Shown: positions 2,793 through 34,780 of the stretch, piece after piece | How the letters are laid out: every line of letters begins with the position of its first letter | How positions within the stretch are numbered: the first letter of the stretch is position 1 | NCBI GenBank assembly: GCA_033722075.1 | Contig: JAWVZU010000001.1 | Location: 129 to 64,128, forward strand | Direction: 5' to 3' | DNA from: Lysobacterales bacterium | Lineage (GTDB): Bacteria; Pseudomonadota; Gammaproteobacteria; Xanthomonadales; SZUA-38 | Length of the DNA stretch: 64,000 nucleotides | Notes under the pieces: generated by a model | Told to the model about the DNA's origin: nothing | The model's input: the letters and a program-made list of their open reading frames with translations, nothing else | The model's database searches: none | Translations under genes and position numbers: made by a program

Positions 2793-4928
2793 ATGACCGA
2801 GTCATCCACCCTGGACCGGATCGTCGACTGGGCCTTGCTGCGCCTGGGGAAGCAGCTCGTGATCGGAACGCCGCTGGGCCTGGGCAAGCCGAACGAGGTG
2901 CTGAATGCGTTCTATCGCCGGGCCTGTGCGGACCCCTCGATCGACCTGCAGATCGTCACCGCGCTTTCCCTGGACGTTCCCCAGGGAGACAACGAATTCG
3001 AGCAACGTTTCGTCGCGCCCTTTGCCGAACGCCATTTCGGACCGGACTATCCGCGCCTGGGTTTCGCCGTCGACCAGGCTGCGCAGACGCTGCCGGAGAA
3101 CGTGCGGGTCATCGAGTTCTACTTCCAGTCCGGCAGTCGGCTCGGCAACAGTGATGCCCAGCGCAATTACATCAGCAGCAACTATACCCATGTTGCCCGC
3201 GATTTCGTCTCACGCGGCGCGAACCTGATCCTGCAGATGGTCGCTGCGGGCGAGCACCACGGCGAACAGAAGCTCTCCCTGAGCTGCAACGCCGATGTCA
3301 CCCTTGAGCTCAAGGCTCGGCTCGAGCGTCAGCCGGACCATCGCTGCCTGTTCATTGCGCAGATCCATCAGGAGCTGCCTTTCATGCACGGCGACGCCAT
3401 CGTCGACCGGGACTTTTTCGACTGTATCGTCGAACCGAAGGCCAGCCACCGGCTGTTCGCGGTGCCGCGGGGCCCGGTCACCACGCGCGATCATTGGATC
3501 GGACTGCACGCCAGCGCGCTGATCCCGGACTCAAGCACCTTGCAGATCGGAATCGGCAGCCTCAGCGACGCACTGGTCTACGCCCTGCAACTGCGCAACG
3601 AACACAACGATCTCTATCGACCCCTGCTGGAAGCGGGCGGTACGGAACAGGCGGGCACGCTCATCGACCAGTTCGGAGGTCGGGGCGTCTTCGAGGACGG
3701 GATCTTCGGCGCCAGCGAGATGTTCATGGACGGCTTCATGCATCTCTACAAGGCGGGCATCCTGAAGCGACAGGCTTACAACGACGAGGTTCTCCAGGAA
3801 CTGGCGGACCGACACGAGCTGCCCGACGCGCCAACCCGGATGCTGCTCGAGAAGATGTGGGAAGGCCGCACGCTGCCCCGACATATCGACCGCGAGTCGC
3901 TGGCACACCTCAAGCGACTGGGAATTCTTTCGACAGACGTTCGCCTCGAGGACGACACCCTGGTGCGGGGCGAAGCGCGTGTTCCAAACGACCTGGCGGC
4001 AGTGGAGCATCGGGACCAGCTGAGCGCCCACTTCCTGGCCAGCGAGCTCGCACCCGGCATGCTCCTGGAAGCCGCCTTCTTTCTCGGCAGCGCACCGTTC
4101 TACCGATGGCTGCTGGAGCTCGAAGACGACGAGCGGCCCCATTTCTTGATGTCCGGCGTGAAGCGGATCAACCAGCTCTACGGCGGTCGTGAAGAGCTGG
4201 AAATCGCCCAGCGCCGACGCGCCCGCTTCGTCAATACCTGCATGATGATGACCCTGACCGGATCCGCCGTCTCCGACGGCCTGAAGGACGTCCAGATGGT
4301 CAGCGGAGTCGGCGGCCAGTACAACTTCGTCGCCATGGGGCATGCCCTGCCGGAAGGCCGTTCGATCCTGATGCTTCGGAGCGTCCGGGGCGAGGGCGCG
4401 GACGCGAAATCCAATATCGTCTGGGAATATCCCTACACGACGATTCCCCGCCACCTGCGCGACATCGTCATCACCGAGTACGGCATTGCCGACCTGCGTG
4501 GCCGCACGGACGAGGAGTGCATCGAGGCCATGCTGGCCATCACCGACAGCGCGTTCCAGGCTGAGCTGGCGGAGCAGGCCAAGCAGGCGGGCAAGCTGCG
4601 TGGCGATTACCAGGTCTCCGCTCACGCGCAGAACAACAACCTCGAGCGGCTCGACCGGATGTTGGCAGCTCATCGCACCGAGGATCGTTTTCAGCTGTTT
4701 CCCTTCGGTTCCGACTTCGATGACCTTGAGCTGCAGCTCATTGGCGGCCTGAAGAAACTGAAGGCGGCCTCGGCGAGCAAACTCACCCTGCTCAAGGCCG
4801 TGCTCACTGGAAGTCCGGCCCGCTATCCTGCACCGCTCGGTCGCATGGGGCTGGATGCGCCCCGCAGCGTCAAGGAACGCATCCTTGCAAGGCTTCTTGC
4901 GTGGGGTCTGCGCGAGAGCGAAACATGA
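2793..4928 (+). CDS. Acetyl-CoA hydrolase/transferase family protein (long form)
   Basis: 711 aa. N-terminal GTPLGLGKPNEVLNA and C-terminal SGVGGQYNFVAMGHALPEGRSILMLRS ... ITEYGIADLRGRTDEE match the acetyl-CoA hydrolase/transferase N- and C-domains. Confidence 0.8.
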   Translation: MTESSTLDRIVDWALLRLGKQLVIGTPLGLGKPNEVLNAFYRRACADPSIDLQIVTALSLDVPQGDNEFEQRFVAPFAERHFGPDYPRLGFAVDQAAQTLPENVRVIEFYFQSGSRLGNSDAQRNYISSNYTHVARDFVSRGANLILQMVAAGEHHGEQKLSLSCNADVTLELKARLERQPDHRCLFIAQIHQELPFMHGDAIVDRDFFDCIVEPKASHRLFAVPRGPVTTRDHWIGLHASALIPDSSTLQIGIGSLSDALVYALQLRNEHNDLYRPLLEAGGTEQAGTLIDQFGGRGVFEDGIFGASEMFMDGFMHLYKAGILKRQAYNDEVLQELADRHELPDAPTRMLLEKMWEGRTLPRHIDRESLAHLKRLGILSTDVRLEDDTLVRGEARVPNDLAAVEHRDQLSAHFLASELAPGMLLEAAFFLGSAPFYRWLLELEDDERPHFLMSGVKRINQLYGGREELEIAQRRRARFVNTCMMMTLTGSAVSDGLKDVQMVSGVGGQYNFVAMGHALPEGRSILMLRSVRGEGADAKSNIVWEYPYTTIPRHLRDIVITEYGIADLRGRTDEECIEAMLAITDSAFQAELAEQAKQAGKLRGDYQVSAHAQNNNLERLDRMLAAHRTEDRFQLFPFGSDFDDLELQLIGGLKKLKAASASKLTLLKAVLTGSPARYPAPLGRMGLDAPRSVKERILARLLAWGLRESET

Positions 4929-9245: not shown

Positions 9246-11102
9246 TCAGGGCGACGTGGCTTCCTGGGCCATCAGCGACGTGGGCGATTCCGAGCGGCAG
9301 ATTCGCGTTCCCGTCAGCGGCTGGCACTCCCGGACGCCGGAAAAACTTCCTTCGCCGGCGCTCAGGTTGAAATCGAAGCGCTGGGAGATGCGATCGACAT
9401 CCGCGGCGGCCACACTCGCGGTGTCAAAGCGCCATTGCTTGATCGCCCGCAGCGCGGCCCGGTCGAAAACGCGTCGCGGCCGACTGTCCACGATCTCGAT
9501 TTCCGTCGGCCTGCCCTCGGCGTTGATCGCGAACGCGACCTCGACGTAACCCTTCTGCCCGGACAGCCGCGCGCGCACCGGATACTCCGGAGAAACGCGC
9601 ACCAGCACCTCGGGACCCGGATCGACGGGCCTGGCTTCAGGTTGTCGAATCCGTTCGCCCGTCACGAGCAGATTTGCCGGGCGCGGGATGTCGAGCTCCG
9701 GCTGCGTGGAAAGAAACGGCTTGCTCCGTGCGCTTTCGACCACCTGCGGGTCGGCGATGGCCCGCTCGCTGGCCTGGCGACCGGATTGCGGTTCGGCGGA
9801 AGCCGCCGCCCCACTCACATCGGCAGGCGGCGCCGGCGCCTCACGGGTTTCGGTCACCACGGATTGCGCCACGGGCTCCTCGGCAGGCTCGGCCACGACC
9901 TTCACCCTATCGACCGGAGCCGGCTCCGGCTCGTCCTCGACTACCGACACACGGGCGTTCTCGAGCGGCGCAAGCAGAGCCTCCGAGTGCTGAGGCACCG
10001 TGGCAAGCAGCAATTCGTTGACCAGCGCATCACCGATCCGGGCTCGCTGCGCTTCGAAAGCGCCCAGCGGGTCCGCAAAGCGACCGGTCACCACAACGGT
10101 CAGACCCACGATGACCAGGAACAAGGTGTTGCCGGCAACGGCGTCGCGCGGTTCGGCCGCATGGTTGCAGACGATGCGCTCGATGCGTTCGAACAGTTGA
10201 CCGTCGGTAGCGGCCAGCGCGGGCACGACGTCCCCGGAACGGATCGATTCGAGATTGGTCAGGGCCTTGGCATACTCCAGCCGGTTTCCGCAGGTCTCCA
10301 CGACCAGATCGTCACAGCACTTCTCCCGCTCCTCGCGCACCCGGCGCGAAATCCACCCGACCACCGGGTGATAGAACAGCGCCGTTTCCACACAGACCTG
10401 AACCAGGTTGACCAGGTAATCCCAGCGGCGGACATGGCTCAACTCGTGGGCGATGACGAGTTCCAGCTGACGGGGCGAGAGGCCGATCAGGCTGGCCGTC
10501 GGCAAGAGGATGACTGGCTTTAACCATCCCATCACCGTGGGCACTTCGACAAGCGTGGATTCGAGAATGGAGACGGCCCGTTGAATCCCGAACAGCTCGC
10601 GCAAGGCAGCGGCCTTGTCCAGGAGAAGCTGGCTGGGCTGGCGGACACCGATGCGGGTCAGCTGACGCATGCGACGCCACTTTACGAACACCCGGGTCGA
10701 ATGAAGCGAAACGCCCAGGGCCCAGGCGGCCACGACCCAGGGAAGAAACCGCTCGATCATCCCGGCCCAGGAGAATGCGGATTCCGGATCGGCGGAGCCG
10801 AGCATCGAGCCGACGCCCATGGCGCCGAGCGCGTAGGACTCGGCGACGCCCGACTGTTCGATCCCGGGAAATACGATGAAGAAAGTGACGACGGGCGCGG
10901 CTGCCAGCGCGCCCATGGAGGCCAGACCTATCCAGTAACGCGGCGCCGGTGCGCCGTTTCGCAACAGACGCATGCTCAGCGCGAAAAATGCGCCAATGGC
11001 GGCTCCCTGCCACAGGAAATGGATCAGGGCCCATCCGAGGGCCTGAACAAAGACGTTCAGTGCATCCCAGTCGAGGAACATGGCTCCTCCGTCAAAATTC
11101 AA
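9246..11102 (-). CDS. BlaR1/M56-family membrane sensor-peptidase with a TonB C-terminal domain
   Basis: 618 aa. N-terminal TM segments, HELSHVRRWD (M56 HExxH), an Ala/Pro/Glu-rich linker, and a C-terminal PEYPVRARLSGQKGYVEVAFAINAEGRPTEIEIV TonB-C fold signature. Confidence 0.85.
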   Translation of the reverse strand: MNFDGGAMFLDWDALNVFVQALGWALIHFLWQGAAIGAFFALSMRLLRNGAPAPRYWIGLASMGALAAAPVVTFFIVFPGIEQSGVAESYALGAMGVGSMLGSADPESAFSWAGMIERFLPWVVAAWALGVSLHSTRVFVKWRRMRQLTRIGVRQPSQLLLDKAAALRELFGIQRAVSILESTLVEVPTVMGWLKPVILLPTASLIGLSPRQLELVIAHELSHVRRWDYLVNLVQVCVETALFYHPVVGWISRRVREEREKCCDDLVVETCGNRLEYAKALTNLESIRSGDVVPALAATDGQLFERIERIVCNHAAEPRDAVAGNTLFLVIVGLTVVVTGRFADPLGAFEAQRARIGDALVNELLLATVPQHSEALLAPLENARVSVVEDEPEPAPVDRVKVVAEPAEEPVAQSVVTETREAPAPPADVSGAAASAEPQSGRQASERAIADPQVVESARSKPFLSTQPELDIPRPANLLVTGERIRQPEARPVDPGPEVLVRVSPEYPVRARLSGQKGYVEVAFAINAEGRPTEIEIVDSRPRRVFDRAALRAIKQWRFDTASVAAADVDRISQRFDFNLSAGEGSFSGVRECQPLTGTRICRSESPTSLMAQEATSP

Positions 11103-14186: not shown

Positions 14187-17100
14187 TTGAGCGGTATTGC
14201 GCGCGAAGCCCCCCTGCTGTGCGTGTGGGGCGGAGAACCCCCACCGTCGCTGGCTGAATCCGGCAAGCTGGAAGTGCTGCAAGCGCCAGCGGAGCTGGGC
14301 CCGCTGGACGCGCTGCGCTGGGCATTCGAGCAATCCGGTGCTCGCGGCGTCGTGCTGGCCGGGGCCAGGGCGACAATCCCTTCCCACTGGTGGGATAGGT
14401 TGTCCGGCGCCGAACGACTCGATACGACGGCCGATGCGGTCACTGCGCTGGATCCTTCGGTTCCCGAGCTGAACCCGGCCCGGGAGAGGACCAGTGACGC
14501 GGCGATCTACCTCCTGTCCGACCGTTCCTTCTTCCCGCAGCGAGCCGCCAGCCCGAACCTCAGCTGGTGGTTGCGCCGGCCGGAGCGTCTCGACGAGGCT
14601 AAGAACTGGGCGGAGCTCGTCAGCGGCCGCGCGCGCATCCTGACCTGCGATCACTGTCTGGTCGATGTCGCGGAGATCGCCGGGACCGGGGGAACGGCGC
14701 TGGACCCACTGCGGCGCCGAATCCAATCGCTGCCGGCAGGAACCGCCGCCGGCATCTCGGGCTATCCCGGAGTCGACGGCCTGCCGGTCTGCCTGCACAT
14801 ACTCCATTCCTGGGGTGGCGGCGTGGCGCGCTGGGTGGCGGACTACGCCGCGGCAACAGGCGATCGCCACCACCTGGCGTTGATCGCCGTCGGGGACGAA
14901 ATGGGCGAGGACTGCGGGCGACAACTGGCCTTGTGCGCGGGCGGCGCGACGGAGGACCGCGCCATCGTGCGCTGGCCCCTGACCCAGTCGCTCCGGGCGA
15001 CCGAGGTCCATCACCCCGAGTACGAGGCGGTCCTCACCCAGCTCATCCGGGACTTCTCGGTCGGCCAGCTGATCATCTCCTCGCTGATCGGCCACAGCCT
15101 CGACGCGCTGGACGCGGGTCTCCCGACGCTGGTCGTCATGCACGACTATTACCCCGCATGGCCCCGGCTGGACATCAACTTCGAGGCGGACGAAGGCCCG
15201 TTCACGACGGACCGGCTGGCCGAGGAGCCGCCGACACAGCGCCTGAAGGACCTTACGCCAGAGCACTGGGAGAACGTCGCCGACGCCTATCGGCAGGCGC
15301 TCCACAAACCTCGCGTGAAGCTCGTCGCGCCGGATGAATCCATCGCTGCCAACCTGAAACGACTTGATCCGGCGTACGGCGAATTAAACGTCCGGGTGAT
15401 TCCCCACGGGCATCGGTCCCTCGACGCAACGTATCGCTATCAGCCTCGCGACATGATCGATCGCCTGAGGATCGTGGTGCCCGGTCGGATCAGCCCCAAC
15501 AAGGGCAAGCAACTGCTTCTCGACGCGCTCCCCAGGCTGCGGGACCACGCGGATCTCTATCTGCTCGGCAGTGGCTCGGACGGGGAGGATTTCTTCGGCT
15601 TGAGCGGCGTTCATGTCCTCCTCGACTATGACCGGAATGATCTGCCTGAGCTTTTGCAGGCAATCCAGCCCGACCTGGCTTTGCTGCCGTCGCTCACCTC
15701 CGAGACCTTCAGCTACACGCTGAGCGAGTTCTGGTCCCTGGGCGTACCGGTCCTGGCCGCCCGCGTCGGCGCCCTGGCCAATCGCATCGAACCGGACGAG
15801 ACCGGCTGGCTGTTCGAGCCGCAACCGGACCCGATGGTCGCGGCCATCGAGGCCCTGGGACCCGAAGAACTGGCCCATGTCGCCGAGAAGGTCCGGACCA
15901 TCACGCTCCCGGACCTCGGCGACATGGGCGCGGCCTACGACCGGCTCCAGGCGCCCCTCGATCCTGCGCCGTATTCACCGAAACTCTTCGACCCGGACCG
16001 GCTGCGCAACATCGAAGCCGCAACGGAACTGCTGCGCCTGAGCGACGAGGCCCAACGCCAGCGGGCTGCGATTCGCGATCTGCGCAAGGAGCTGCAAACG
16101 CGGGGCGAATGGGGTTTCGAGCTGGATCGTCGCCTGGCGCGGAGAACGGCATGGGCGAAGTCCCTCGAGGCCGACCTGGAAAAGGCACGGGCTCGCGTGG
16201 AAGCGCAGGACAGCGAACTGGCAGAGCGCACCGAGTGGGCCCTGAAGCTCGATGCCGAACTGAACGATCTTCGCCGTGAAGCGCAGGAGAAGCTGGACGA
16301 GGCCTGGGAGGAGATCGGTCGCCTGCGCGCCGTCGAGGAACACTACGAACAGATCATCGCCAGCCGGAGCTGGAAGCTGACCAAACCGCTGCGGTTTGCG
16401 GCGCGGCTCACCCGTCGGGCGCTGGGCATCGCAACCGGCCGGGGCGGCAAGGTCGTCCACCTCGGCCGGCGCACCCGGCAGAGCCTGCGGGTCCGCGGCG
16501 TCCGCGGTACGGCCCGACGCATCGGCCAGGAATTCCGCGGCAAATCGGCCCCGGTGCTGAAACCGCCGTCGGCGCGCCTGACGGAACAGTTCGATCCGCT
16601 GGAATTTCCGACCGTCGAGCAACCCCAGGTGTCGGTGATCATCCCGGTCCACAACCATTTCGAACATACCTACGCCTGCCTCCAGTCGCTGCTCGAGACG
16701 AGCAACGAGGCCTCCTTCGAGGTGGTGATCGTCGACGATGCCTCGACCGACCGAACCGGCGAGTTGCTGCCGCGCATCAGCGGTATTCAAACGCTGGTCA
16801 ACGAGGAAAATCTCGGCTTCATCGGTACCTGTAACCGGGGCGCAGCCCATGCCCGCGGCGACCACCTCGTTTTTCTCAACAACGACACGGCGGTTTCCGA
16901 CGGCTGGCTGGACGCGTTGCTCGGGACTTTCGAAAGCCATCCGGATGCGGGCCTCGTCGGTGCGCGCCTGGTCTACCCCGACGGCCGCCTGCAGGAAGCC
17001 GGGGGCATCGTCTTCTCGGACGGATCCGGCTGGAACTACGGGCGTTTCGAAGATCCCAGCCATCCGGCCTACAACTTCGTCCGGGAAGCCGATTACTGCT

Positions 17101-18503
17101 CAGGTGCCGCGATCGCCATTGCCCGGGAACTGTTCGAGACCCTGGGCGGATTCGACACCCGCTACGCGCCGGCCTACTACGAAGATACGGATCTCGCGTT
17201 TGCGGTGAGAAAGCACGGCCTCCGCGTCTACTACCAGCCGGCCGCCGTGGTCACCCACTTCGAGGGGATCACCTCGGGGACGGACACGAGCAGCGGAATC
17301 AAGCGCTACCAGGTCGTCAACCAGGAGAAGTTCCAGGAAAAATGGGCGGCCGAACTCAAACGTCAACCCACCTCCGGCACGCCCATCGGCCGCGCCCGCG
17401 AGCACGGGCGACCGCGGCGCGCTCTGATCATCGATGCCTACACGCCGGAACCGGACCAGGATTCCGGCTCGGTCCGCCTGACCAACCTGATGCAGCTGTT
17501 CCGCGAGCTCGGTTATCAGGTGACCTTCTGTCCGGACAACCGGGCCTACGTGGCGGGCTACACCGACGCGCTGACCCAGGCGGGCGTCGAGGTCTACCAC
17601 CATCCCTGGACGGATGGCGGCACCCGGATGTTCGAGGAGATCGGCGCGGAGCTGGACGTGGTGCTCATCTGCCGCCATTACATCGCGGCCAACTACATCA
17701 GGCGGGTGCGAGCCCATTGCCCCAGGGCCCGGCTGATCTTCGATACCGTCGATCTCCACTACCTGCGAGAACAGCGGCTGGCCGACCTGGAGGGCGACGA
17801 GAAACTGCGGGAAACGGCCGAGGAGACCCGTCGCGCGGAACTTGCCGTCGCCCGGCAGTCTGACCTGACGCTGGTGGTGAGCCCAGCCGAAGTCGAAGTG
17901 TTGGCCCAGGACGCCCCGGATGTCCGGGTCGGCGTCCTTTCCAATATTCACCCGGTGCATGGGCGACGCGCCGACTTCGAAGCACGGAAAGACCTCATGT
18001 TCGTCGGCGGCTATCAGCATCCGCCCAACATCGACGCAGTGCAGTGGTTCGTGGAGAAAATCTTCCCGGCCATCCGCGCGGAACTGCCGGAGATCCGTTT
18101 TCACATCATCGGCAGCAAGGCGCCGCCGGAGGTGCGCCGGTTGGGCCGGGCGGAAGGGGTCGAGTTCCACGGCTTCGTCAAGGACATCGAGCCCTTCTTC
18201 GACGGTTGCCGCTTGGCCGTTGCGCCGCTGCGCTACGGGGCCGGGGTCAAGGGCAAGGTCAACAGTTCCATGAGCTATGGCCAGCCCGTCATCGCTACCC
18301 CGACGGCGGTCGAGGGCATGGGGGTGACCAGCGGCGACGAGGTGCTCGTGGCGGAGACCGCGGAAGCATTCGCCGCGGCCGTCCTCCGGGCCTACAACGA
18401 TCCGGAACTCTGGCTCAGGCTCTCCGAAGGCGGATTGCAGAACGTGGAGGCGAACTTCTCCTTCGCCGCAGCCCGCGGCGCGCTGGAAAGACTGCTGCGT
18501 TGA
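14187..18503 (+). CDS. Giant multidomain glycosyltransferase. Order: unknown N-terminal region, GT-B (group 1), coiled coil, GT-A (family 2), GT-B (group 1).
   Basis: 1438-aa ORF with a TTG start. GT-B #1 spans about aa 200-560 (ETFSYTLSEFWSLGVPVLAARVGAL). A heptad-rich coiled coil spans about aa 610-725 and ends in SRSWKLTKPLR. GT2 spans about aa 814-1035 (VSVIIPVHNH..., VVIVDDASTD, YYEDTDLAF). GT-B #2 spans about aa 1078-1438 (APLRYGAGVKGKVNSSMSYGQPVIATP). Confidence 0.85.
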   Translation: MSGIAREAPLLCVWGGEPPPSLAESGKLEVLQAPAELGPLDALRWAFEQSGARGVVLAGARATIPSHWWDRLSGAERLDTTADAVTALDPSVPELNPARERTSDAAIYLLSDRSFFPQRAASPNLSWWLRRPERLDEAKNWAELVSGRARILTCDHCLVDVAEIAGTGGTALDPLRRRIQSLPAGTAAGISGYPGVDGLPVCLHILHSWGGGVARWVADYAAATGDRHHLALIAVGDEMGEDCGRQLALCAGGATEDRAIVRWPLTQSLRATEVHHPEYEAVLTQLIRDFSVGQLIISSLIGHSLDALDAGLPTLVVMHDYYPAWPRLDINFEADEGPFTTDRLAEEPPTQRLKDLTPEHWENVADAYRQALHKPRVKLVAPDESIAANLKRLDPAYGELNVRVIPHGHRSLDATYRYQPRDMIDRLRIVVPGRISPNKGKQLLLDALPRLRDHADLYLLGSGSDGEDFFGLSGVHVLLDYDRNDLPELLQAIQPDLALLPSLTSETFSYTLSEFWSLGVPVLAARVGALANRIEPDETGWLFEPQPDPMVAAIEALGPEELAHVAEKVRTITLPDLGDMGAAYDRLQAPLDPAPYSPKLFDPDRLRNIEAATELLRLSDEAQRQRAAIRDLRKELQTRGEWGFELDRRLARRTAWAKSLEADLEKARARVEAQDSELAERTEWALKLDAELNDLRREAQEKLDEAWEEIGRLRAVEEHYEQIIASRSWKLTKPLRFAARLTRRALGIATGRGGKVVHLGRRTRQSLRVRGVRGTARRIGQEFRGKSAPVLKPPSARLTEQFDPLEFPTVEQPQVSVIIPVHNHFEHTYACLQSLLETSNEASFEVVIVDDASTDRTGELLPRISGIQTLVNEENLGFIGTCNRGAAHARGDHLVFLNNDTAVSDGWLDALLGTFESHPDAGLVGARLVYPDGRLQEAGGIVFSDGSGWNYGRFEDPSHPAYNFVREADYCSGAAIAIARELFETLGGFDTRYAPAYYEDTDLAFAVRKHGLRVYYQPAAVVTHFEGITSGTDTSSGIKRYQVVNQEKFQEKWAAELKRQPTSGTPIGRAREHGRPRRALIIDAYTPEPDQDSGSVRLTNLMQLFRELGYQVTFCPDNRAYVAGYTDALTQAGVEVYHHPWTDGGTRMFEEIGAELDVVLICRHYIAANYIRRVRAHCPRARLIFDTVDLHYLREQRLADLEGDEKLRETAEETRRAELAVARQSDLTLVVSPAEVEVLAQDAPDVRVGVLSNIHPVHGRRADFEARKDLMFVGGYQHPPNIDAVQWFVEKIFPAIRAELPEIRFHIIGSKAPPEVRRLGRAEGVEFHGFVKDIEPFFDGCRLAVAPLRYGAGVKGKVNSSMSYGQPVIATPTAVEGMGVTSGDEVLVAETAEAFAAAVLRAYNDPELWLRLSEGGLQNVEANFSFAAARGALERLLR

Positions 18504-24552: not shown

Positions 24553-26583
24553 CTAGTTGAAGGTCGGCGATCCGGCTTCCGTCGCCGCTTTCACGCGCCG
24601 GATCAGCTGCTGAAAATCCACCTCGCGGGAATACCCGATCACGTCGATCCGCGGGATACCCGAGCCTTCGACGATGTAATAGCCCCCATCGGGCGCCGGG
24701 CGAACACCGGCCATGGAGCACACATTGTTGCGCAACCGGCAGGCGATCCCCAGCCGCTCGTAGCCGAAATCCTCGAAAAAGCGCAGAAAGGTGGAGGACA
24801 GCACCGCCGTCGGACCGCCACCGATCGACGTCAGGTTGTCGACTGCGCGCTGGCTGATGCGGTGGGTGGAGCGGTCGTTTTCGGGCGTCTTGAGCGTCAT
24901 GTCGAAGGCCACCGGCTGCCAGTCCAGCAGACGCAGGTTGCGCAGACCGCCCTCGACCCGCCCACGGATTTCACCGAAGGAAAATGCACCGGTCATCTGC
25001 CGCAGATCCAGGTTGGTCAGGATCAGGTCGCCGGCCAGCGTGGGCAGCACGCCGAAGAGTCGTTCCAGGCGGAGTTTTTCGAAGCGTACGGTGCCGTCGA
25101 AGACAGCAAGCTCAATCGCACCGCCGACCTCGACGATCTCGTCGCGCAGGCGGACCCGGGGAATCTCACCGGACAGGGTCCCGTTCAACGGCGGCCATTC
25201 CAGCGCCTCGGTCACCGGGCGCAGAGAGATCGGCTCGATGTCGGCCTCGAAGTCCAGGGTCATTTCGGCGCTGCCGTAGTCACTGAAAGCCAACGTTCGG
25301 ATCGTCGCAGCGCCATCGAAGATTCCCAGACGCAGCGGTTGCAGCAGCTGGAACTCGTTGGCGGCCAGGAAGAAGCGCGCTTCGCCCGGCGCGATTTCCA
25401 CCTGATAGATACCGGCGCGATCCCAGGCGAGGGCCGAGTCCGCGGAATCGCCTTCGGCACTGTAGTCCACCAGGCCATCGAGTGCTTCGAAAGCAAAACG
25501 CCCAGCACTGTCACGCACGTCGACCGAGCGAATATCGAGTGTCGCGTGCGCCAGTTCGGCGTCGGCCAACTCCATGCGTCCCCGCACCTTGCCGGCCAGG
25601 TCGAACCGACCGAGGCCGAGGGCCTGCACCAGATTGGCCAGATAGCGATCGTACACCTCCGGGAAAAGCAGGTGATCGAGTTCGACGGTCCAACGACCGG
25701 CAGCCAGGGACGACAGGTTGCCTTCGCCGGATAGGGAAAGGGAGAGCAACTCGCCATCGGTCAGCTCGGCCGACTCCACGGCCAGCACCTCCCCGGCCAG
25801 GTTGCCGGCCAGCTGGAGCCGGGGTCGGGCCTGGGCGAAATTCAGGTACAGGCTCCCGAAGAGTGCTTCCCCGCCGCTCGGCGCCAGGTCCACTTCGAAG
25901 GTGACAGCCTTGTCACCGATTTCACCGCTCGCCGAGAGGGTCAACCCCAGTTCGGCGCCGGCAACCGTCCCATCCGCGTTGTCGAAGCCAAGACCGGTCA
26001 GGGTCATTTCTGCAGTTGCGCTCGTGGTTTCAGATGATTCGGGCCGACGGATCGTGCCGTGTCCGCTGAGAGTTCCGCCATGGAGCGAATAGCCGTCAAG
26101 CAGGGGCGCAGCGAGCGACTCTACGGCCAGGTCGGAAAGCGTGTAGTCACCGGACAGCCCATCCTCGTCCAGGCTCGCACTGAAACTGACCTCCCCGCCG
26201 AAGAGCCCGCTCTGTCCCGACAGGCTGAGACGCTCTTCCTCAAACTCGTAGGTCCATCGGACCGTACCCTCCGTAGCGCCCCACGAAGCGTTGAACCGCA
26301 GCGTTCCCTCGCATCCCACCCGTTCTTCATCGAGGCGAAAGCGGGTGCACGCAAGAACCGGCTCACCAAAAACCCTTTCGCCTACTACGAGTTCCGCGGC
26401 GGTGGCCCGCGCACTGGTCGTTTCCGGGTTGAGGGACAGGTTGACTTCGACAGCCTTGCCGACGCCGGGCAGCTTCACCTCGGCTGCCGTGATCTCCAGA
26501 ACACCACCGGCATGGACCGGTTGCAGTATAGTCGTCAGACCCAGCAACCAGGCGGCACCCGCCGACGGCAATCGACATTTCAT
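24553..26583 (-). CDS. ydbH: YdbH-like AsmA-family intermembrane lipid-transport protein
   Basis: 676 aa with a signal/anchor MKCRLPSAGAAWLLGLTTIL. A long beta-rich repetitive body is followed by C-terminal STHRISQRAVDNLTSIGGG ... FGYERLGIACRLRNNVCSMAG, typical of the YdbH C-terminus. Confidence 0.8.
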   Translation of the reverse strand: MKCRLPSAGAAWLLGLTTILQPVHAGGVLEITAAEVKLPGVGKAVEVNLSLNPETTSARATAAELVVGERVFGEPVLACTRFRLDEERVGCEGTLRFNASWGATEGTVRWTYEFEEERLSLSGQSGLFGGEVSFSASLDEDGLSGDYTLSDLAVESLAAPLLDGYSLHGGTLSGHGTIRRPESSETTSATAEMTLTGLGFDNADGTVAGAELGLTLSASGEIGDKAVTFEVDLAPSGGEALFGSLYLNFAQARPRLQLAGNLAGEVLAVESAELTDGELLSLSLSGEGNLSSLAAGRWTVELDHLLFPEVYDRYLANLVQALGLGRFDLAGKVRGRMELADAELAHATLDIRSVDVRDSAGRFAFEALDGLVDYSAEGDSADSALAWDRAGIYQVEIAPGEARFFLAANEFQLLQPLRLGIFDGAATIRTLAFSDYGSAEMTLDFEADIEPISLRPVTEALEWPPLNGTLSGEIPRVRLRDEIVEVGGAIELAVFDGTVRFEKLRLERLFGVLPTLAGDLILTNLDLRQMTGAFSFGEIRGRVEGGLRNLRLLDWQPVAFDMTLKTPENDRSTHRISQRAVDNLTSIGGGPTAVLSSTFLRFFEDFGYERLGIACRLRNNVCSMAGVRPAPDGGYYIVEGSGIPRIDVIGYSREVDFQQLIRRVKAATEAGSPTFN

Positions 26584-27304
26584 GGCCTACCGCATCCTCA
26601 TTGCCGACGACAACCGGATCAACCGCGAATTCCTTGTTGGAGTACTGGCCGGCGAAGAGTATCAGATCGAGCAGGCGATGGAGGGCAGCGCGGCGATCGA
26701 GCTCTGCCGCAGGAACCGCTTCGACCTGGTGCTCATGGACATCCGGATGCCCGGTGTCGATGGCATCGAGGCCACCCGGGCGATCCGCAGCCTGCCCGGA
26801 CTGCAGGATCTGCCGATCGTCGCCTTGACTGCCGACGTCGCGCTTCAGCGGGATGCCATCAAAGACGAAGCCTTCGCAGCCACGCTGGTAAAACCCGTCT
26901 CCCGTCGCGAACTCCTCGAGACGCTCAACCGGCTCCTCGGCGCCACGCCTGCCGGAATCGAACTCCAGGAGAACCCGATCGCCATGGACGCCGCCCTGGC
27001 CGCCGCCGGCGGAAACAGGGAACTGGTGGGCCGACTGACCGCCATGCTGAGAAAAGAGTTGGACGATTTCGAACCTAAAATCTCCGCTGCGATCGATCGC
27101 GCGGATTGGCCGGCCGCCCGCGAACTGGTGCACAAATTGCGTGCGTCCGCGGGCTATTGCGGCGCCCGACCTCTCGCCACCGCCGCCGGGACGCTGGAGG
27201 AAGCTCTCGACAAGGGCGAAGGGGGGACGATCCGCGACCTCCAGGCACGATTGAAACGCGAGATGGCAATCCTGCGCACCCATCTCGACGAATCCACGGG
27301 CTGA
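26582..27304 (+). CDS. Response-regulator receiver fused to an Hpt phosphotransfer domain
   Basis: Start re-picked at MAYRILIADDN. It has the receiver motif DLVLMDIRMPGVDG and the Hpt motif HKLRASAGYCGA. No kinase gene is in the window. Confidence 0.85.
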   Translation: MAYRILIADDNRINREFLVGVLAGEEYQIEQAMEGSAAIELCRRNRFDLVLMDIRMPGVDGIEATRAIRSLPGLQDLPIVALTADVALQRDAIKDEAFAATLVKPVSRRELLETLNRLLGATPAGIELQENPIAMDAALAAAGGNRELVGRLTAMLRKELDDFEPKISAAIDRADWPAARELVHKLRASAGYCGARPLATAAGTLEEALDKGEGGTIRDLQARLKREMAILRTHLDESTG

Positions 27305-29182: not shown

Positions 29183-30310
29183 CTATTTCTTGCTGACCAC
29201 GACCTTGTTCCGCCCACCCCGCTTGGCACTGTAGAGCGCCTTGTCGGCCGCTTCGATCACCGCATCCGGCGGCTGCCCACTGCTGTTGTCGGCCAGACCG
29301 ATGCTGACGGTCACGTTGAGGCTGGGGACTTTTTCCCGGTACCGGTCCTTCTTGAGGGGTTTGTGATCGGGCCGGATCGGGGCGCGGAAGGCCATGGGCG
29401 GCACTTCCACGGCCGCCCGGACCTCCTCGCACACATCAGCCGCGTTGCGGGTTCTTTCAGCGCCGAGAAACAACAGGCAGAACTCCTCGCCGCCATAGCG
29501 GAATGCCTTGAACCGTCCGACTCGCCTGACGCGCGATGCCACCATGCGCAGCACCTGGTCTCCGAAATCGTGTCCGAAGCGATCGTTGATCCGCTTGAAA
29601 TGGTCGATGTCCAGCATCGCAATGGCGAATTGGCGCGGCATGGAAGACAGGGTCAGATCCAGGGAGCGTCGATTTGGCAGTCCCGTCAGGGCATCGACGA
29701 ACGCCATCCGGTGAGTGGTATAGATCACGCCCAGAAAGAGCACCCCGGCGGCCCCCGCGACGACTACGGTCAGCATGCTCGGCCGCATGACGCCGACCAG
29801 CAGCACGGTGGCCATCAGGGACATCGCCAGCTCGGTCGACCGATCCGACATCTGCCAGCGCAGGAAGAAGGAGATCGATGCCAGAACCGTCACCAGGGGT
29901 TCGACCGGAATGATCCAGCTCGCGAACCGCTCCGGGACCCAGCGCTGGAGAAGGGTATTGATGCCGGCTGCCCCGTCCCAGACGCCGGGTTCGAACCACA
30001 GGGGCAAAACCAGCTCCAGGGTCAGCAGAAAAACGACCGCCGCCGTCACCAGCGAAGGCAGACGGGCCATCGGCAACCAGGAGAGCAGCAACAGGTTCCA
30101 GGGCAACCAGGCCAACGCGGTTGCGCCGAGATCGTGGCTGAGCGGCCAACCAGCGGCCTTCGCCACCTCCCGCGCCGCCAGGCCGGCCACCAGGAAGATC
30201 AGCCAGATGAAGCCGTAGGCTGCCCGGAACCGCTTGAACCACGCAGCGTAAATCAGGCCGAAGGCAAGAAAGAACAGGAGTCCCAAGCCATTTTCCAGCC
30301 CGATACTCAC
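29183..30310 (-). CDS. Membrane-anchored diguanylate cyclase (GGDEF)
   Basis: 375 aa. An N-terminal half of about six TM segments is followed by DIDHFKRINDRFGHDFGD and RYGGEEF (GGEEF active site). Confidence 0.9.
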   Translation of the reverse strand: MSIGLENGLGLLFFLAFGLIYAAWFKRFRAAYGFIWLIFLVAGLAAREVAKAAGWPLSHDLGATALAWLPWNLLLLSWLPMARLPSLVTAAVVFLLTLELVLPLWFEPGVWDGAAGINTLLQRWVPERFASWIIPVEPLVTVLASISFFLRWQMSDRSTELAMSLMATVLLVGVMRPSMLTVVVAGAAGVLFLGVIYTTHRMAFVDALTGLPNRRSLDLTLSSMPRQFAIAMLDIDHFKRINDRFGHDFGDQVLRMVASRVRRVGRFKAFRYGGEEFCLLFLGAERTRNAADVCEEVRAAVEVPPMAFRAPIRPDHKPLKKDRYREKVPSLNVTVSIGLADNSSGQPPDAVIEAADKALYSAKRGGRNKVVVSKK

Positions 30311-30463: not shown

Positions 30464-30492
30464 GCCGGGTCGTTCGCGGCCCGGCCTTTTTT
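30464..30492 (+). terminator. Intrinsic terminator oriented on the + strand (orphan)
   Basis: gccgggtcg-ttcg-cggcccggc gives a 9-bp GC-rich stem (one G-U pair) with a UUCG tetraloop. It is followed by c + tttttt (30487-30492). On the minus strand there is no U tract after the hairpin. Confidence 0.7.
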
Positions 30493-30520: not shown

Positions 30521-31921
30521 TCAACGAGCAATCTGATAGCAGGGCTCGTAGACGCTACCGGGCAGCTTCATGCGCTGCTGCTGCACGAACGAAGCCAGTA
30601 GCTGGTCGAGTTTGGAGAGCAACTCCGGATCGCCGTGGATGCGGTACTTCCCATGCTTGGCGATCGCTTCCATCCCCTCGTCTTTCACGTTTCCCGCCAC
30701 GATCCCCGAAAACGCGCGCCGCAGGTCCGCGGCCAGATCGTGGGCATCCGCCTCATGGGTGAGATCGAGCGCCGCCATGTTCTCATGGGTTGGCCGAAAC
30801 GGGATCTGGAAAGCATGTCTGACATGGAGACCCCAGTTGAAGAAGAACGCGTCTTTCGTCTCGATACGGTAGCGCTTGACCTCCTCGACTCCGCTCGCCA
30901 GGGACTGGGCAACGGCCTCCGGATCACCGACGATGATCTGATAGCGAGACTGGGCCTCCTCCCCGAGAGTCGCGCCGATGAATTCATCGATCCGGGAAAA
31001 GTAATCGGCGCTTTCCTTCGGTGCGGTGAAGATCAGCGGCACCGGCACATCCCGATTGGCGGGATCGAGCAGGATGCCGAGCAGGTACAGGATTTCCTCC
31101 GCCGTCCCCACACCGCCGGGAAAGACGATGACTCCGTGGGCAATCCGGACGAACGCCTCGAGACGTTTTTCGATGTCCGGCATGATGACCAGCTGGTTGA
31201 CGATCGGATTGGGCGACTCGGCAGCAATGATGCCGGGCTCTGAAACGCCGATATAGCGGCCTTGCCAGCGACGCTGCTTGTAGTGGGCAATCGTCGCACC
31301 TTTCATCGGTCCCTTCATCGCGCCGGGCCCGCACCCGGTGCAGATATCGAGACCGCGCAGGCCAAGCTGGTAGCCCACGTCCTTGGTGTAGTCGTACTCG
31401 CTGCGGGCAATCGAATGGCCACCCCAGCAGACGATCAGATTGGGGTCTATCCCGGTCTGGAGGATTCCCGCGTGGCGCAGAATCGAGAAGACCGCATCGG
31501 TGATCCCGGCGGGATCGTCGAGTGCGAACTTGCCTTCCCGAATCTGGGTACTGACATAGACGACATCCCGCAGTACGGCGAAGAGCAGTTCGCGGATTCC
31601 CTCGATCAGTTTGCCGTCGACGAACGCCGATGCCGGCGCATTGACCAGCTCCAGCTTGATGCCGCGGTCCTGCTGAACCACGCGAACGTCGAAATCCGAA
31701 TGCTGTGCGAGCATGGCATGCGGGTCATCCTGCAGGGCGCCGGAGTTGACGACCGCAAGACAGCAACGGCGAAACAGGTCGTACAGGCCGCCGTGACCGG
31801 ATTCCTTCAGCCGCGCGACCTCCTGCTGCGACAGGACGTCCATGCCTTCCGTGGGGACGATGCGTGCCACCTTGGGCGCCGACGTATTCTTACCGACCTT
31901 GTTCAACATTCCATTGCTCAT
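30521..31921 (-). CDS. ppnN: Pyrimidine/purine nucleotide 5'-monophosphate nucleosidase (LOG-family, PpnN/YgdH-like)
   Basis: 466 aa. VCWGGHS, GCGPGAMKGP and FPGGVGTAEEILY are LOG/PpnN core motifs. The length matches PpnN. Confidence 0.85.
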   Translation of the reverse strand: MSNGMLNKVGKNTSAPKVARIVPTEGMDVLSQQEVARLKESGHGGLYDLFRRCCLAVVNSGALQDDPHAMLAQHSDFDVRVVQQDRGIKLELVNAPASAFVDGKLIEGIRELLFAVLRDVVYVSTQIREGKFALDDPAGITDAVFSILRHAGILQTGIDPNLIVCWGGHSIARSEYDYTKDVGYQLGLRGLDICTGCGPGAMKGPMKGATIAHYKQRRWQGRYIGVSEPGIIAAESPNPIVNQLVIMPDIEKRLEAFVRIAHGVIVFPGGVGTAEEILYLLGILLDPANRDVPVPLIFTAPKESADYFSRIDEFIGATLGEEAQSRYQIIVGDPEAVAQSLASGVEEVKRYRIETKDAFFFNWGLHVRHAFQIPFRPTHENMAALDLTHEADAHDLAADLRRAFSGIVAGNVKDEGMEAIAKHGKYRIHGDPELLSKLDQLLASFVQQQRMKLPGSVYEPCYQIAR

Positions 31922-33289
31922 TCACAGTCCATCTGGCAGAAACGTGTCCTGCCGTCTTCCCGCCGCCCGCCTGCGCGCCCGGGCAAGGCGCCGATTTCTG
32001 GCGCGCACGAAAAACGTGACCGCGACGGCGATGAGGGCAATCGCCCCCAGCAGATAGGGCAGCCATGCCCGGTCCTGCGACTCTGCCTGCGGTGGCTGAT
32101 CGACCGGCGCATCCAGCCCCGGCCTCAGATCCGGCTCCGCCTGCGAGGCGGTGTCCGCCGGGGTGATTCCCGGCTCGGCGGCGGCCCGGGCCTGATCCGC
32201 CGCCTCTGCCTCGCGCAGTTCCATCAAGCGCTGCAGGTCGCCGATGCGCTGCTCCAGCGTCGCTATGCGCTCTCTGAGATTTTCGTTTTGCTGCCGATAG
32301 GTTTCAATCTCGGTCCGCGCATAGGCGAGGTCCCGGTCGACCGTCTCCTGCTGCGCCGCGAGGGTCAGCGCATCGGCATCCAGCCAGTCCGCAAGGGATT
32401 GGGCGATCTCTTCCGGCCCCGGGGGCGCCCGGAGCCTCACCCTGTCAGCTTCGCTCGCCCGCCCTGGAGCGGTGATCGGTTTTTCCACCGGCGGTGGAAT
32501 CTCCGGCAACCTGGCCAGGTCGTTCTCGTTCCGCGCAAGCTGCTGCGGCACGGTCATCGTGACGCCTGCGAGCAGCCGATTCCGGTTGCCGTTCACAAAT
32601 GCATCCGGGTTGGCATTGAACAGAAGGTCAGCCACCTCATCGAGGGACCGCTCACCGGTATAACGCCGGGAAATCCCGTACAGCGTGTCACCGCGACGGA
32701 CCCGATAGCTGGTTCCCGTCGGCTCCTCGGCCGCGGGTGCGGGCGTCTCTTCGACGGGGGCCGGAAGGGTCGGCATTACATCCGTGCGGGCGGGACGCCG
32801 CGCAACCGGGGGTTCAGGCTCGACCTGGGGCTCCTGTTCGGGCATCTCGATCGCGCTCGGGAAATCCAGCAGGACCGGATAGTGCCGGCTCTGAACACCG
32901 CCCGGCTCTGCCATCACGACCACCAGATCGAGCACCAGGTCCTCGATCGGCAAGCGGCTGCTCATCGCCACCCGCCAGACGCCCTGCTCCAAACGCGGCT
33001 CCGCAAGAATGATCCAGTCGGCGGCCGCCGGTCGCGGCAACTGCAGCCGTCCATAGTCCGTCGCATCGCCGATGCCGAAGGTGTGATCCCGCAGATCCTC
33101 GCCGGGTTCACGACTGACGACCAGGTCAGCAGCAAAAGTTTCACCAAGATAGGAGCGGACATCCAGATCTCCCAGCCGGGCGGCGCTGCCCAAGGCTGGA
33201 AGCAGGAGGACGAGGCTGAGGAAAATGCTACGCAAGATAATGGAAATCGGGGTATTGAGGACTCGCGAAGTGTACCTTAACCCGGACAT
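31922..33289 (-). CDS. Short FimV/HubP-like LysM protein, C-terminally membrane anchored (paralog A)
   Basis: Signal peptide, then LGDLDVRSYLGETFAADLVV (FimV N-terminal motif), HYPVLLDF, LysM YRVRRGDTLYGISRRY, LFNANPDAFVNGNRNRLLAGVTMTVP, a coiled coil, a TM segment and a basic tail ending TFLPDGL. The start is uncertain (33289 or 33328). Confidence 0.8.
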   Translation of the reverse strand: MSGLRYTSRVLNTPISIILRSIFLSLVLLLPALGSAARLGDLDVRSYLGETFAADLVVSREPGEDLRDHTFGIGDATDYGRLQLPRPAAADWIILAEPRLEQGVWRVAMSSRLPIEDLVLDLVVVMAEPGGVQSRHYPVLLDFPSAIEMPEQEPQVEPEPPVARRPARTDVMPTLPAPVEETPAPAAEEPTGTSYRVRRGDTLYGISRRYTGERSLDEVADLLFNANPDAFVNGNRNRLLAGVTMTVPQQLARNENDLARLPEIPPPVEKPITAPGRASEADRVRLRAPPGPEEIAQSLADWLDADALTLAAQQETVDRDLAYARTEIETYRQQNENLRERIATLEQRIGDLQRLMELREAEAADQARAAAEPGITPADTASQAEPDLRPGLDAPVDQPPQAESQDRAWLPYLLGAIALIAVAVTFFVRARNRRLARARRRAAGRRQDTFLPDGL

Positions 33290-33387
33290 TGCACAAGTTG
33301 CGCTTGCCCATCGGCGCAATGCCTGCATGCAGGTCCAAAACAGAATAGAATTAGCTATAAAATACCTGGAACGGGGGACGGTTCAGG

Positions 33388-34662
33388 ATGAATCGGATCA
33401 AAAGCTGCGCGCTGTTGCTGTGCTGCGTCCTGGGGACGGCCAAGGCTACCGGCCTGGGCGAGTTGGAAGTCACCTCCAGCTACGGCGCACCATTCTCGGC
33501 GACCTTGCGAGTCAATATCGACGGTCTGAACCTCGCCCCGCAGGTTCGTGTAGCGGGCTCGGAGGCGTACGATCGGCTGACGCTCGATCGACCACGCATC
33601 GTCGATTCCATCTCTGTTGGCGAACTTCAGCGGGACGGTGCCGGTTGGTATGCCACGCTGGAAGGCGATGCGCCGGTCAAGGAACTGGTCCTCGATCTGG
33701 TGCTGCTTATCGAAGAACCTGGCTCTCGCCAGGCCAGGCACTACCCGGTGCTGCTTGATTTCGGGCCCTCGCCAGCCACCAGCACCGCCGAATCCACCGG
33801 CCGTCAGGCACCGCGCTCGATCGCCGCCTCTCCACGCAGCTCGCGTCCCCCGTCCCGGGACGGAGACGGTACTTACCGCGTTCGCCGCGGCGATACGCTG
33901 TTCGGTATTGCCCGAAGTCTCGGCGGGCAAGGCAGCATGGCTGAATTGGCCGAAGCGATCTTTCAGGCCAACCCGGAAGCCTTCATCCGCGGCGACCGCA
34001 ATCGCCTGAGAGCAGATGTCGACCTGCGCATTCCGGGCTCGGCGGACGTCGCCAGGCCCGGGGAGACGGCACCGGCGCGAGTGGATCCTACCCCCTCGGA
34101 AATTACCGTGGAACGAGTCGAACTGACCGTACCTCCGGAGGTTGCCCAGCTGGAACGATCGCTCGACCAGCTCGCTGCCAGCGAAGACTCGGAACTGGAA
34201 GCCCGGGCCGAGGAAGCTCGCCTTCAGCTCGCTTTCAGCCGTGCGGAACTCGAGACCTATCGCCAGGAAAACGTGGCTCTGAACGAGCAGATCGACATCC
34301 TCGAGCAGCGCCTCGACGACATGCAGGAGCTGCTCGATCTCCGCGATGAGGATGTAGCGGCCGCACTTGAACGCGAGAGCCGGAGTTCGGCGCCGGCAGA
34401 AATGGAACCGCAGCCCGGCCTGGTGACCCCGGAGGCGGCCACCGTACCACCCAGGGATCCGCTCCCGGAGCCCCCGGCCCCCTCGAACGAGTTCGATTCG
34501 AAAAGCGTCATCCTCTATTTCGGTGGCGGCGTCGTGGCGATCATCGGCATGGTGATCCTGTTCTTCTACCTGCGCGAGGACAAGGCGCGAGCCGAGCAAA
34601 GGCGGCGGCTTGCTCGACAGATCGAAGAGGAATCCCGGCTGACGCTTCCCGAGGATCTTTAG
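33388..34662 (+). CDS. Short FimV/HubP-like LysM protein, C-terminally membrane anchored (paralog B)
   Basis: Same architecture as paralog A: LGELEVTSSYGAPFSATLRV, HYPVLLDF, LysM YRVRRGDTLFGIARSLG, IFQANPEAFIRGDRNRLRADVDLRIP, a coiled coil, a TM segment and a tail ending LTLPEDL. Confidence 0.8.
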   Translation: MNRIKSCALLLCCVLGTAKATGLGELEVTSSYGAPFSATLRVNIDGLNLAPQVRVAGSEAYDRLTLDRPRIVDSISVGELQRDGAGWYATLEGDAPVKELVLDLVLLIEEPGSRQARHYPVLLDFGPSPATSTAESTGRQAPRSIAASPRSSRPPSRDGDGTYRVRRGDTLFGIARSLGGQGSMAELAEAIFQANPEAFIRGDRNRLRADVDLRIPGSADVARPGETAPARVDPTPSEITVERVELTVPPEVAQLERSLDQLAASEDSELEARAEEARLQLAFSRAELETYRQENVALNEQIDILEQRLDDMQELLDLRDEDVAAALERESRSSAPAEMEPQPGLVTPEAATVPPRDPLPEPPAPSNEFDSKSVILYFGGGVVAIIGMVILFFYLREDKARAEQRRRLARQIEEESRLTLPEDL

Positions 34663-34780
34663 CCCGACCCTCCCTGTCGACCGCTTGACCGGGCAAACTA
34701 CAAGCCTGCCGCCGGGCATTGGATCGGCGACGGATTTCGGCATAATGCAAGGCCGTCAGCCTGTCCGGAGCCACCGTTTC

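Follow-up and report, generated by a model that had tools for sequence, protein, structure and literature searches.

The DNA analysed here, 64,000 nucleotides (nt) from contig JAWVZU010000001.1 of a Lysobacterales bacterium (hereafter the window), carries two divergently transcribed genes, A and B, that encode short relatives of the polar landmark protein FimV. Both proteins join a FimV-type periplasmic module and a single transmembrane (TM) helix to a very short tail ending in the motif LPxxL, and A directly precedes ppnN, the gene of a (p)ppGpp-regulated nucleotide 5'-monophosphate nucleosidase. FimV and HubP have been studied as large multi-client polar hubs. The favoured interpretation, to which a probability of roughly 0.5 was assigned, is that the short proteins consist of a wall-anchored FimV-type periplasmic module with a terminal docking peptide for one client, and that A is paired with ppnN.

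The initial annotation had proposed a pair of FimV-like open reading frames (ORFs) here, and both were recovered as full-length paralogs that aligned end to end in BLASTP with 34% identity (E 6e-56). At its longest, the ORF of A spans 31922..33328 on the minus strand and is open up to an ATG at 33328. The A protein is 100% identical to P0003, 'MAG: hypothetical protein R3200_00150 [Xanthomonadales bacterium]' (MAG, metagenome-assembled genome), for which NCBI annotates the TTG at 33235 as start codon. The B protein is 100% identical to P0001, from an ENA metagenome scaffold. The strands of both genes are backed by homology, Pfam matches and position-specific GC content. The motifs quoted in the initial annotation were all present: the N-terminal signatures LGDLDVRS in A and LGELEVTS in B, HYPVLLDF in both, and the A/B pairs YRVRRGDTLYGI / YRVRRGDTLFGI and FNANPDAFVNGNRNRL / FQANPEAFIRGDRNRL. 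Two antisense ORFs without homology support, one of 462 amino acids (aa) over B (33355-34743, minus strand) and one of 672 aa over A and ppnN (31262-33280, plus strand), are typical of the usual high-GC artefacts. The features of the two genes and their immediate surroundings are listed below (Ig, immunoglobulin; AF2, AlphaFold2; pLDDT, predicted local distance difference test score).

31922..33235, minus strand: gene A, ppnN-linked copy of the ancestral type, encoding a short FimV-like protein of 437 aa (TTG start at 33235)
32858..33178, minus strand: A, FimV_N Ig-like beta-sandwich domain, aa ~20-126 (PF25800, 46.3 bits; AF2 pLDDT ~95; Foldseek matches to Ig domains)
32534..32713, minus strand: A, LysM-like/FimV-core putative peptidoglycan-binding domain, aa ~175-234 (TIGR03505; profile match to PDB LysM domains; AF2 pLDDT >90)
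32177..32416, minus strand: A, periplasmic helices and coiled coil, aa ~274-353 (invariant Asn at heptad 'a' position)
31997..32068, minus strand: A, single TM helix, aa ~390-413 (hydropathy, AF2)
31925..31996, minus strand: A, predicted cytoplasmic tail of 24 aa, Arg-rich, ending in LPDGL (motif at 31925-31939)
33388..34662, plus strand: gene B, paralogous short FimV-like protein, 424 aa
33451..33759, plus strand: B, FimV_N Ig-like domain, aa 22-124 (PF25800, 51.1 bits; AF2 pLDDT >90)
33865..34032, plus strand: B, LysM-like/FimV-core domain, aa ~160-215 (profile matches, AF2)
34141..34386, plus strand: B, periplasmic coiled coil, aa ~252-333 (heptad register and buried Asn as in A)
34501..34575, plus strand: B, single TM helix, aa ~372-396 (hydropathy, AF2)
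34576..34659, plus strand: B, predicted cytoplasmic tail of 28 aa, charged, ending in LPEDL (motif at 34645-34659)
33236..33387, no strand: divergent intergenic region, 50% G+C, with a block conserved in the locus of the A ortholog (L001)
30521..31921, minus strand: ppnN (NF038390; match to PpnN in the PDB, E 1e-166; adjacency)

AF2 models of A and of B, each built on a 16-sequence family alignment, agreed in the order of their elements: a signal-peptide helix, a beta-sandwich (pLDDT ~95), a disordered Pro-rich linker, a small alpha/beta LysM-like domain (pLDDT >90), a second linker, a helix of ~60-80 residues, a disordered stretch and one TM helix. The last few residues of both proteins were non-helical and of low confidence. 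A Foldseek search with the beta-sandwich returned Ig domains, and the Pseudomonas-type FimV_N profile PF25800, which is absent from HubP, was matched well above the Pfam cutoff of 27 bits. The profile of the 16-member family matched solved LysM domains in the PDB (LytE, E 1.3e-6; Kbp, 2.8e-4). Hydropathy analysis of each protein showed an N-terminal signal-like segment and one TM segment near the C-terminus, with 8 Lys and Arg residues in the tail of A and 7 in that of B. By standard topology rules, a cleavable signal peptide and a positive-inside tail would place the large N-terminal part in the periplasm and the tail in the cytoplasm. A and B are thus predicted to be inner-membrane proteins of FimV descent with type-I topology (N-out, C-in). 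The FimV-type periplasmic layout, coiled coil and single TM helix that the initial annotation had described in both proteins are agreed upon by Pfam and NCBIfam profiles, hydropathy and AF2.

The stalk helix has the identical best heptad register in A and B, with a family-invariant Asn at an 'a' position. Family-wide, 22 columns, stalk residues included, are invariant across proteins that are 30-55% identical. An Asn at heptad position 'a' favours parallel dimers in model coiled coils.

Neither A nor B gave a Pfam or NCBIfam match to a tetratricopeptide repeat (TPR) or a FimV C-terminal domain, for which the tail is too short, and no extensive acidic cytoplasmic region is present past the TM helix. 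Profile searches and hydropathy thus bear out the absence of a large TPR-containing cytoplasmic domain noted earlier. In the order signal peptide, Ig-like FimV_N/GLB domain, LysM-like domain, periplasmic helical stretch and single TM helix, both proteins resemble FimV of P. aeruginosa and P. putida (~911-919 aa; PMC12918733). However, FimV continues with an acidic cytoplasmic region of ~500 aa, an internal TPR and a C-terminal TPR 'FimV domain', where A and B have their 24-28-aa tail. HubP of Vibrio and Shewanella is likewise similar in its LysM-bearing periplasmic domain, a module credited with a polar-landmark role, and its single TM helix (PMC12918733). HubP is, however, without the Ig-like domain that A and B possess (PMC12918733), and its very long acidic-repeat cytoplasmic region and FimV TPR domain are both missing from A and B. 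Since the two proteins have the periplasmic and TM elements and lack both cytoplasmic ones, they are FimV-like relatives and not FimV/HubP hubs. Of the FimV/HubP-like label first given to them, only the FimV-like part, which describes the periplasmic module, was retained.

A and B belong to a small separate family. An exhaustive search of 1.84 billion representative proteins with a hidden Markov model returned 16,527 FimV-like proteins, at the top of which ~16 clusters of 420-500 aa stood clearly apart, with whole-profile matches above 210 bits; canonical FimV proteins (570-1170 aa) scored at most 195 bits. This group was monophyletic in a neighbour-joining tree (100% bootstrap), and a further, word-indexed protein search with the family profile added no new members. 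All members are of metagenome or MAG origin, with 1-3 sequences per 90%-identity cluster, and carry the names 'hypothetical protein', 'FimV/HubP family polar landmark protein [Xanthomonadales bacterium]' or 'pilus assembly protein FimV'. The family is rare and is known only from uncultured Xanthomonadales-like gammaproteobacteria. Because intact stops occur at the same position in 16 clusters, the members are unlikely to be fragments of longer genes. A short tail alone is not unique to the family, since other FimV homologs (among them P0004 of Castellaniella, 567 aa; P0031; P0080; P0105) also combine the FimV periplasmic module and TM helix with a tail of at most 45 aa. These homologs lie outside the monophyletic group, and they have no LPxxL terminus and no known link to ppnN.

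The tails of A and B end in TFLPDGL and LTLPEDL, respectively, a similarity that the initial annotation had pointed out correctly. The motif LP[DEK][DEG]L formed the exact C-terminus in 11 of the ~16 family clusters, while the remaining tail was otherwise unalignable; four clusters had another conserved tail and one a degenerate tail. Copies of the A clade adjoining ppnN end in [YFW]LP[DEK][GED]L and B-type copies in L[TRS]LP[ED]DL. The motif did not vanish in orthologs, and persisted in more distant relatives as well. It was found at the C-terminus of none of ~145 other FimV homologs and internally in only five. With a chance expectation of ~2e-5 per position, its occurrence at the exact C-terminus of 11 diverged members and of none of the other homologs is not explained by chance. 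The LPxxL end is a feature of a clade and not of the whole family.

The possibility was considered that LPxxL is a sorting signal of the sortase or exosortase type, such as LPXTG or PEP-CTERM. Those signals have the order motif, TM segment, basic cluster, whereas the order here is TM segment, basic cluster, LPxxL. Lying after the membrane anchor, the motif is on the cytoplasmic side and is hence no sorting signal.

The principal new finding, missed in the initial annotation, is the linkage of A to ppnN. The downstream protein matched NF038390 with 735.9 bits (cutoff 450) and contains all three Pfam domains of PpnN, namely PAG1 (DUF4478), the LOG-like nucleosidase domain and PAG2 (PpnN_C). It matched E. 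coli PpnN structures (E 1e-166) and aligned without indels to the solved homolog PDB 3bq9. In the window the TGA of A abuts the ATG of ppnN (TGAATG), so the two genes are probably co-transcribed. In all ten A-type or single-copy members with available context (12 loci including the window), ppnN was immediately downstream on the same strand. Besides the window, these loci are as follows.

L001: the A ortholog
L002: a 449-aa copy
L040: P0015
L041 and L042: P0019
L043: P0018
L044: P0025
L045: P0022
L127 and L128: P0024
L129: P0026

The two genes overlap by 4 nt at one extreme and lie 140 nt apart at the other; they abut or overlap in three loci, and the remaining flanks differ from locus to locus. 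As a control, 116 distant FimV loci from genome-collection and metagenome scans, a set without the window MAG and its relatives, were inspected; among the matches listed, ppnN was present in 0/116 and an ORF ending in the LPxxL motif likewise in 0/116. In this linkage the A-type genes also differ from fimV of P. aeruginosa and P. putida. Taken together, the gene order points to a short-FimV/ppnN pair that is probably co-transcribed and maintained by selection. The initial annotation had treated A and B as the unit. That pair exists here, but most members with context are single-copy, and the conserved unit is the short fimV followed by ppnN. No paper naming both PpnN and FimV was found in the literature searched, and to our knowledge the association is unreported.

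A strong, GC-rich hairpin of 9 base pairs (8 of them G-C) lies at 30464-30485, between the ppnN stop and the start of the next gene, a GGDEF gene. A T-run is present on the plus strand, and on the minus strand an A-run precedes the hairpin. The hairpin may be the terminator of the A-ppnN unit.

In the favoured interpretation, A and B would keep the entire FimV periplasmic module without the cytoplasmic hub. In P. putida FimV, polar placement requires the LysM and Ig-like domains, which bind peptidoglycan (PMC12918733); by analogy, the LysM-like and Ig-like domains of A and B may anchor these proteins to peptidoglycan, and a polar or septal placement would be expected. The stalk helix probably forms parallel dimers, among which A/B heterodimers are conceivable. 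The only cytoplasmic output would then be the basic juxtamembrane segment and the terminal LP[DE][DEG]L peptide; the simplest reading of this peptide is that of a short linear motif recruiting one putative partner.

Several observations weigh against this interpretation. Although the FimV_core profile TIGR03505 matched A (E 2.2e-9, 37 bits) and B (E 1.9e-8, 34 bits), both scores are below the curated cutoff of 43.45 bits, and the partial Pfam LysM matches (20.0 and 19.5 bits) fall just short of the cutoff of 20.9. A subclade of P0017, P0024 and P0025 (96% bootstrap) has a different conserved tail, ...EKTADLVNRIRQA..., and P0026 has the same kind of tail yet groups with P0019 in the tree. As P0024, P0025 and P0026 are all ppnN-linked, LPxxL is not required for the tie to ppnN. 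The adjacency itself could be synteny inherited within a single order-level clade, since identity across the linked loci reaches 67-79% for PpnN, compared with ~30-55% for the FimV-like proteins. Finally, dimerisation, localisation and the existence of a tail partner are predictions, made from sequence and by analogy with FimV.

A purely periplasmic or envelope role is a possible, though less probable, alternative. The proteins would then be peptidoglycan-anchored stalks that might, like the periplasmic part of P. aeruginosa FimV, support an outer-membrane complex or a secretin, and the tail would be a stop-transfer or topology element with an end motif of minor or structural importance. This would be consistent with the finding that all well-folded and strongly conserved parts are periplasmic, with the presence in four loci of a ~1040-aa CarboxypepD_reg/outer-membrane beta-barrel gene directly upstream on the same strand, and with the different tail sequences of the subclades. 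However, the five-residue terminal motif has survived in 11 divergent clusters whose tails have otherwise drifted, which indicates selection on the cytoplasmic end, and the second subclade conserves a different tail of its own, implying a cytoplasmic function.

A second short-FimV copy was found in only three genomes, those of the window, L001 and L002. The copies are divergent in the window and L001 and tandem in L002, where the extra copy lies directly upstream of the ppnN-linked one; the divergent arrangement was seen in two genomes only. In the neighbour-joining tree A and B did not group as sisters (2% bootstrap) and neither did the two L002 copies (0%), so the duplication or duplications are older than the split of these lineages, in accord with the old duplication first suggested. 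A proved to be the ancestral family copy and B an old extra paralog in a few lineages; the B clade and the L002_up476/P0023 clade may stem from either one duplication event or more. P0023 is a B-like paralog located away from ppnN that has lost the motif (tail LEPGDLKH).

An obligate A/B scaffold, held together by the coiled coils and presenting two different tails, appears unlikely. The shared heptad register and buried Asn would allow it. The two-copy state is accompanied in all three genomes by consistently distinct tails ([YFW]LP[DE][GE]L in the A type, L[TRS]LP[ED]DL in the B type), and in two of the three the genes lie head to head around a common spacer with a conserved block. Most members with context, however, occur as a single copy beside ppnN, so that a homomeric form must be functional, and the B-like P0023 is found elsewhere with its degenerate tail.

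A ~140-150 nt spacer separates the two genes in the window and L001 when corrected starts are used. That it is AT-rich was evident (50-51% G+C against 63.9% for the window), whereas the length of ~100 nt originally given depends on the start codon of A, the alternatives being 59, 98 or 152 nt. Both divergent spacers share the block TAGAATT (33346-33352; ~9925 in L001) with flanking CCAAAA / ATGCAG. TAGAATT is a candidate -10 element for B, although a sigma-70 consensus promoter scan of the spacer found no promoter, TAGAATT included; no Rfam match was found in the spacer. In L001, the B ortholog has no signal peptide unless its start is the TTG at 9950, and the gene call looks mis-started; the A ortholog (~9810) is called with an N-terminal extension of ~56 aa that is unlikely to be real. 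In L129 a 144-aa ORF (3962-4396) directly upstream of the full short fimV and then ppnN encodes a signal peptide and FimV_N only, stopping after RHYPVLIDFP. This ORF represents an incomplete tandem duplication or else an Ig-like periplasmic protein in its own right.

It was also considered that the proteins are peptidoglycan-anchored membrane receptors for PpnN or for another stringent-response or cyclic di-GMP client, such as the adjacent six-TM GGDEF protein. This is quite improbable; if true, the conserved C-terminal peptide would confine nucleotide salvage or second-messenger turnover to the pole or septum, and the protein would be a minimal 'one-client' polar hub. Very doubtful, too, is the specific proposal that the tail recruits PpnN, as a tetramer, to a membrane site at the pole or septum that is anchored to the wall, tethering or regulating the enzyme and coupling stringent-response nucleotide breakdown to the envelope. 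The gene pair is maintained in 10/10 members despite shuffled flanks, with genes that abut or overlap in three loci, and ppnN was seen in 0/116 of the other FimV-like loci among the matches listed. Operon membership, however, is no proof of binding, and PpnN is canonical, without indels relative to PDB 3bq9, and highly conserved, whereas the tails differ completely between subclades. The remaining explanation, that A and B are functionless, decayed remnants of a full-length fimV, would account for the missing cytoplasmic two-thirds of the canonical protein but is effectively refuted by family-wide conservation, with intact ORFs of the same architecture and stop position in ~16 clusters, 22 invariant columns across proteins 30-55% identical, conserved terminal motifs and an elevated G+C content at third codon positions in the coding frame.

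The family is thus real but rare, an uncharacterised variant on a known type of protein; no unusual mechanism has been shown for it, and it is not a categorically new system. A lineage with only a wall-anchoring module and a five-residue terminal motif would represent a natural 'minimal' version of the polar hub and could help to tell apart the periplasmic module's own work from that of the hub. The linkage to ppnN offers a concrete, testable candidate for a connection of stringent-response nucleotide metabolism with the cell wall or pole. Both aspects may be of use to workers on polar landmarks or on PpnN.

Downstream of ppnN lies one further gene of possible relevance.

29183..30310, minus strand: multi-TM GGDEF diguanylate cyclase-like gene with ~six hydrophobic segments, downstream of ppnN

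A GGDEF gene beside ppnN is kept only in the three two-copy genomes (window, L001 and L002), and it is uncertain whether it belongs to the short-FimV/ppnN system. In P. aeruginosa, a little-studied second fimV homolog, PA3340 ('fimV-like'), is near hsbD, the gene of a six-TM GGDEF cyclase (PMC5085249). In gene context this arrangement echoes the position of the window's GGDEF gene two genes from A, and the predicted architecture of the GGDEF protein resembles that of HsbD. The other neighbour of PA3340 is plpD (PA3339) and not ppnN.

The outer-membrane barrel gene of the four relatives (~1040-1090 aa; CarboxypepD_reg and OMP_b-brl_4 domains, TonB-dependent-receptor-like) lies directly upstream of the short fimV on the same strand at L002:6754-9882, L041:4583-7855, L043:2382-5495 and L127:1741-4875; in the window it is not at that position. 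No other FimV-like ORF was found within the 64 kb, nor were genes for type IV pili or flagella seen there, and the rest of the window holds ordinary housekeeping genes. Further genes of the window include one for a 240-aa receiver and Hpt fusion protein (26582-27304, plus strand), also conserved in L001, one for a 1438-aa protein with three glycosyltransferase modules (GT1, GT2, GT1; 14187-18503, plus strand), and one for a 618-aa BlaR1-type M56 peptidase fused to a TonB C-terminal domain (9246-11102, minus strand).

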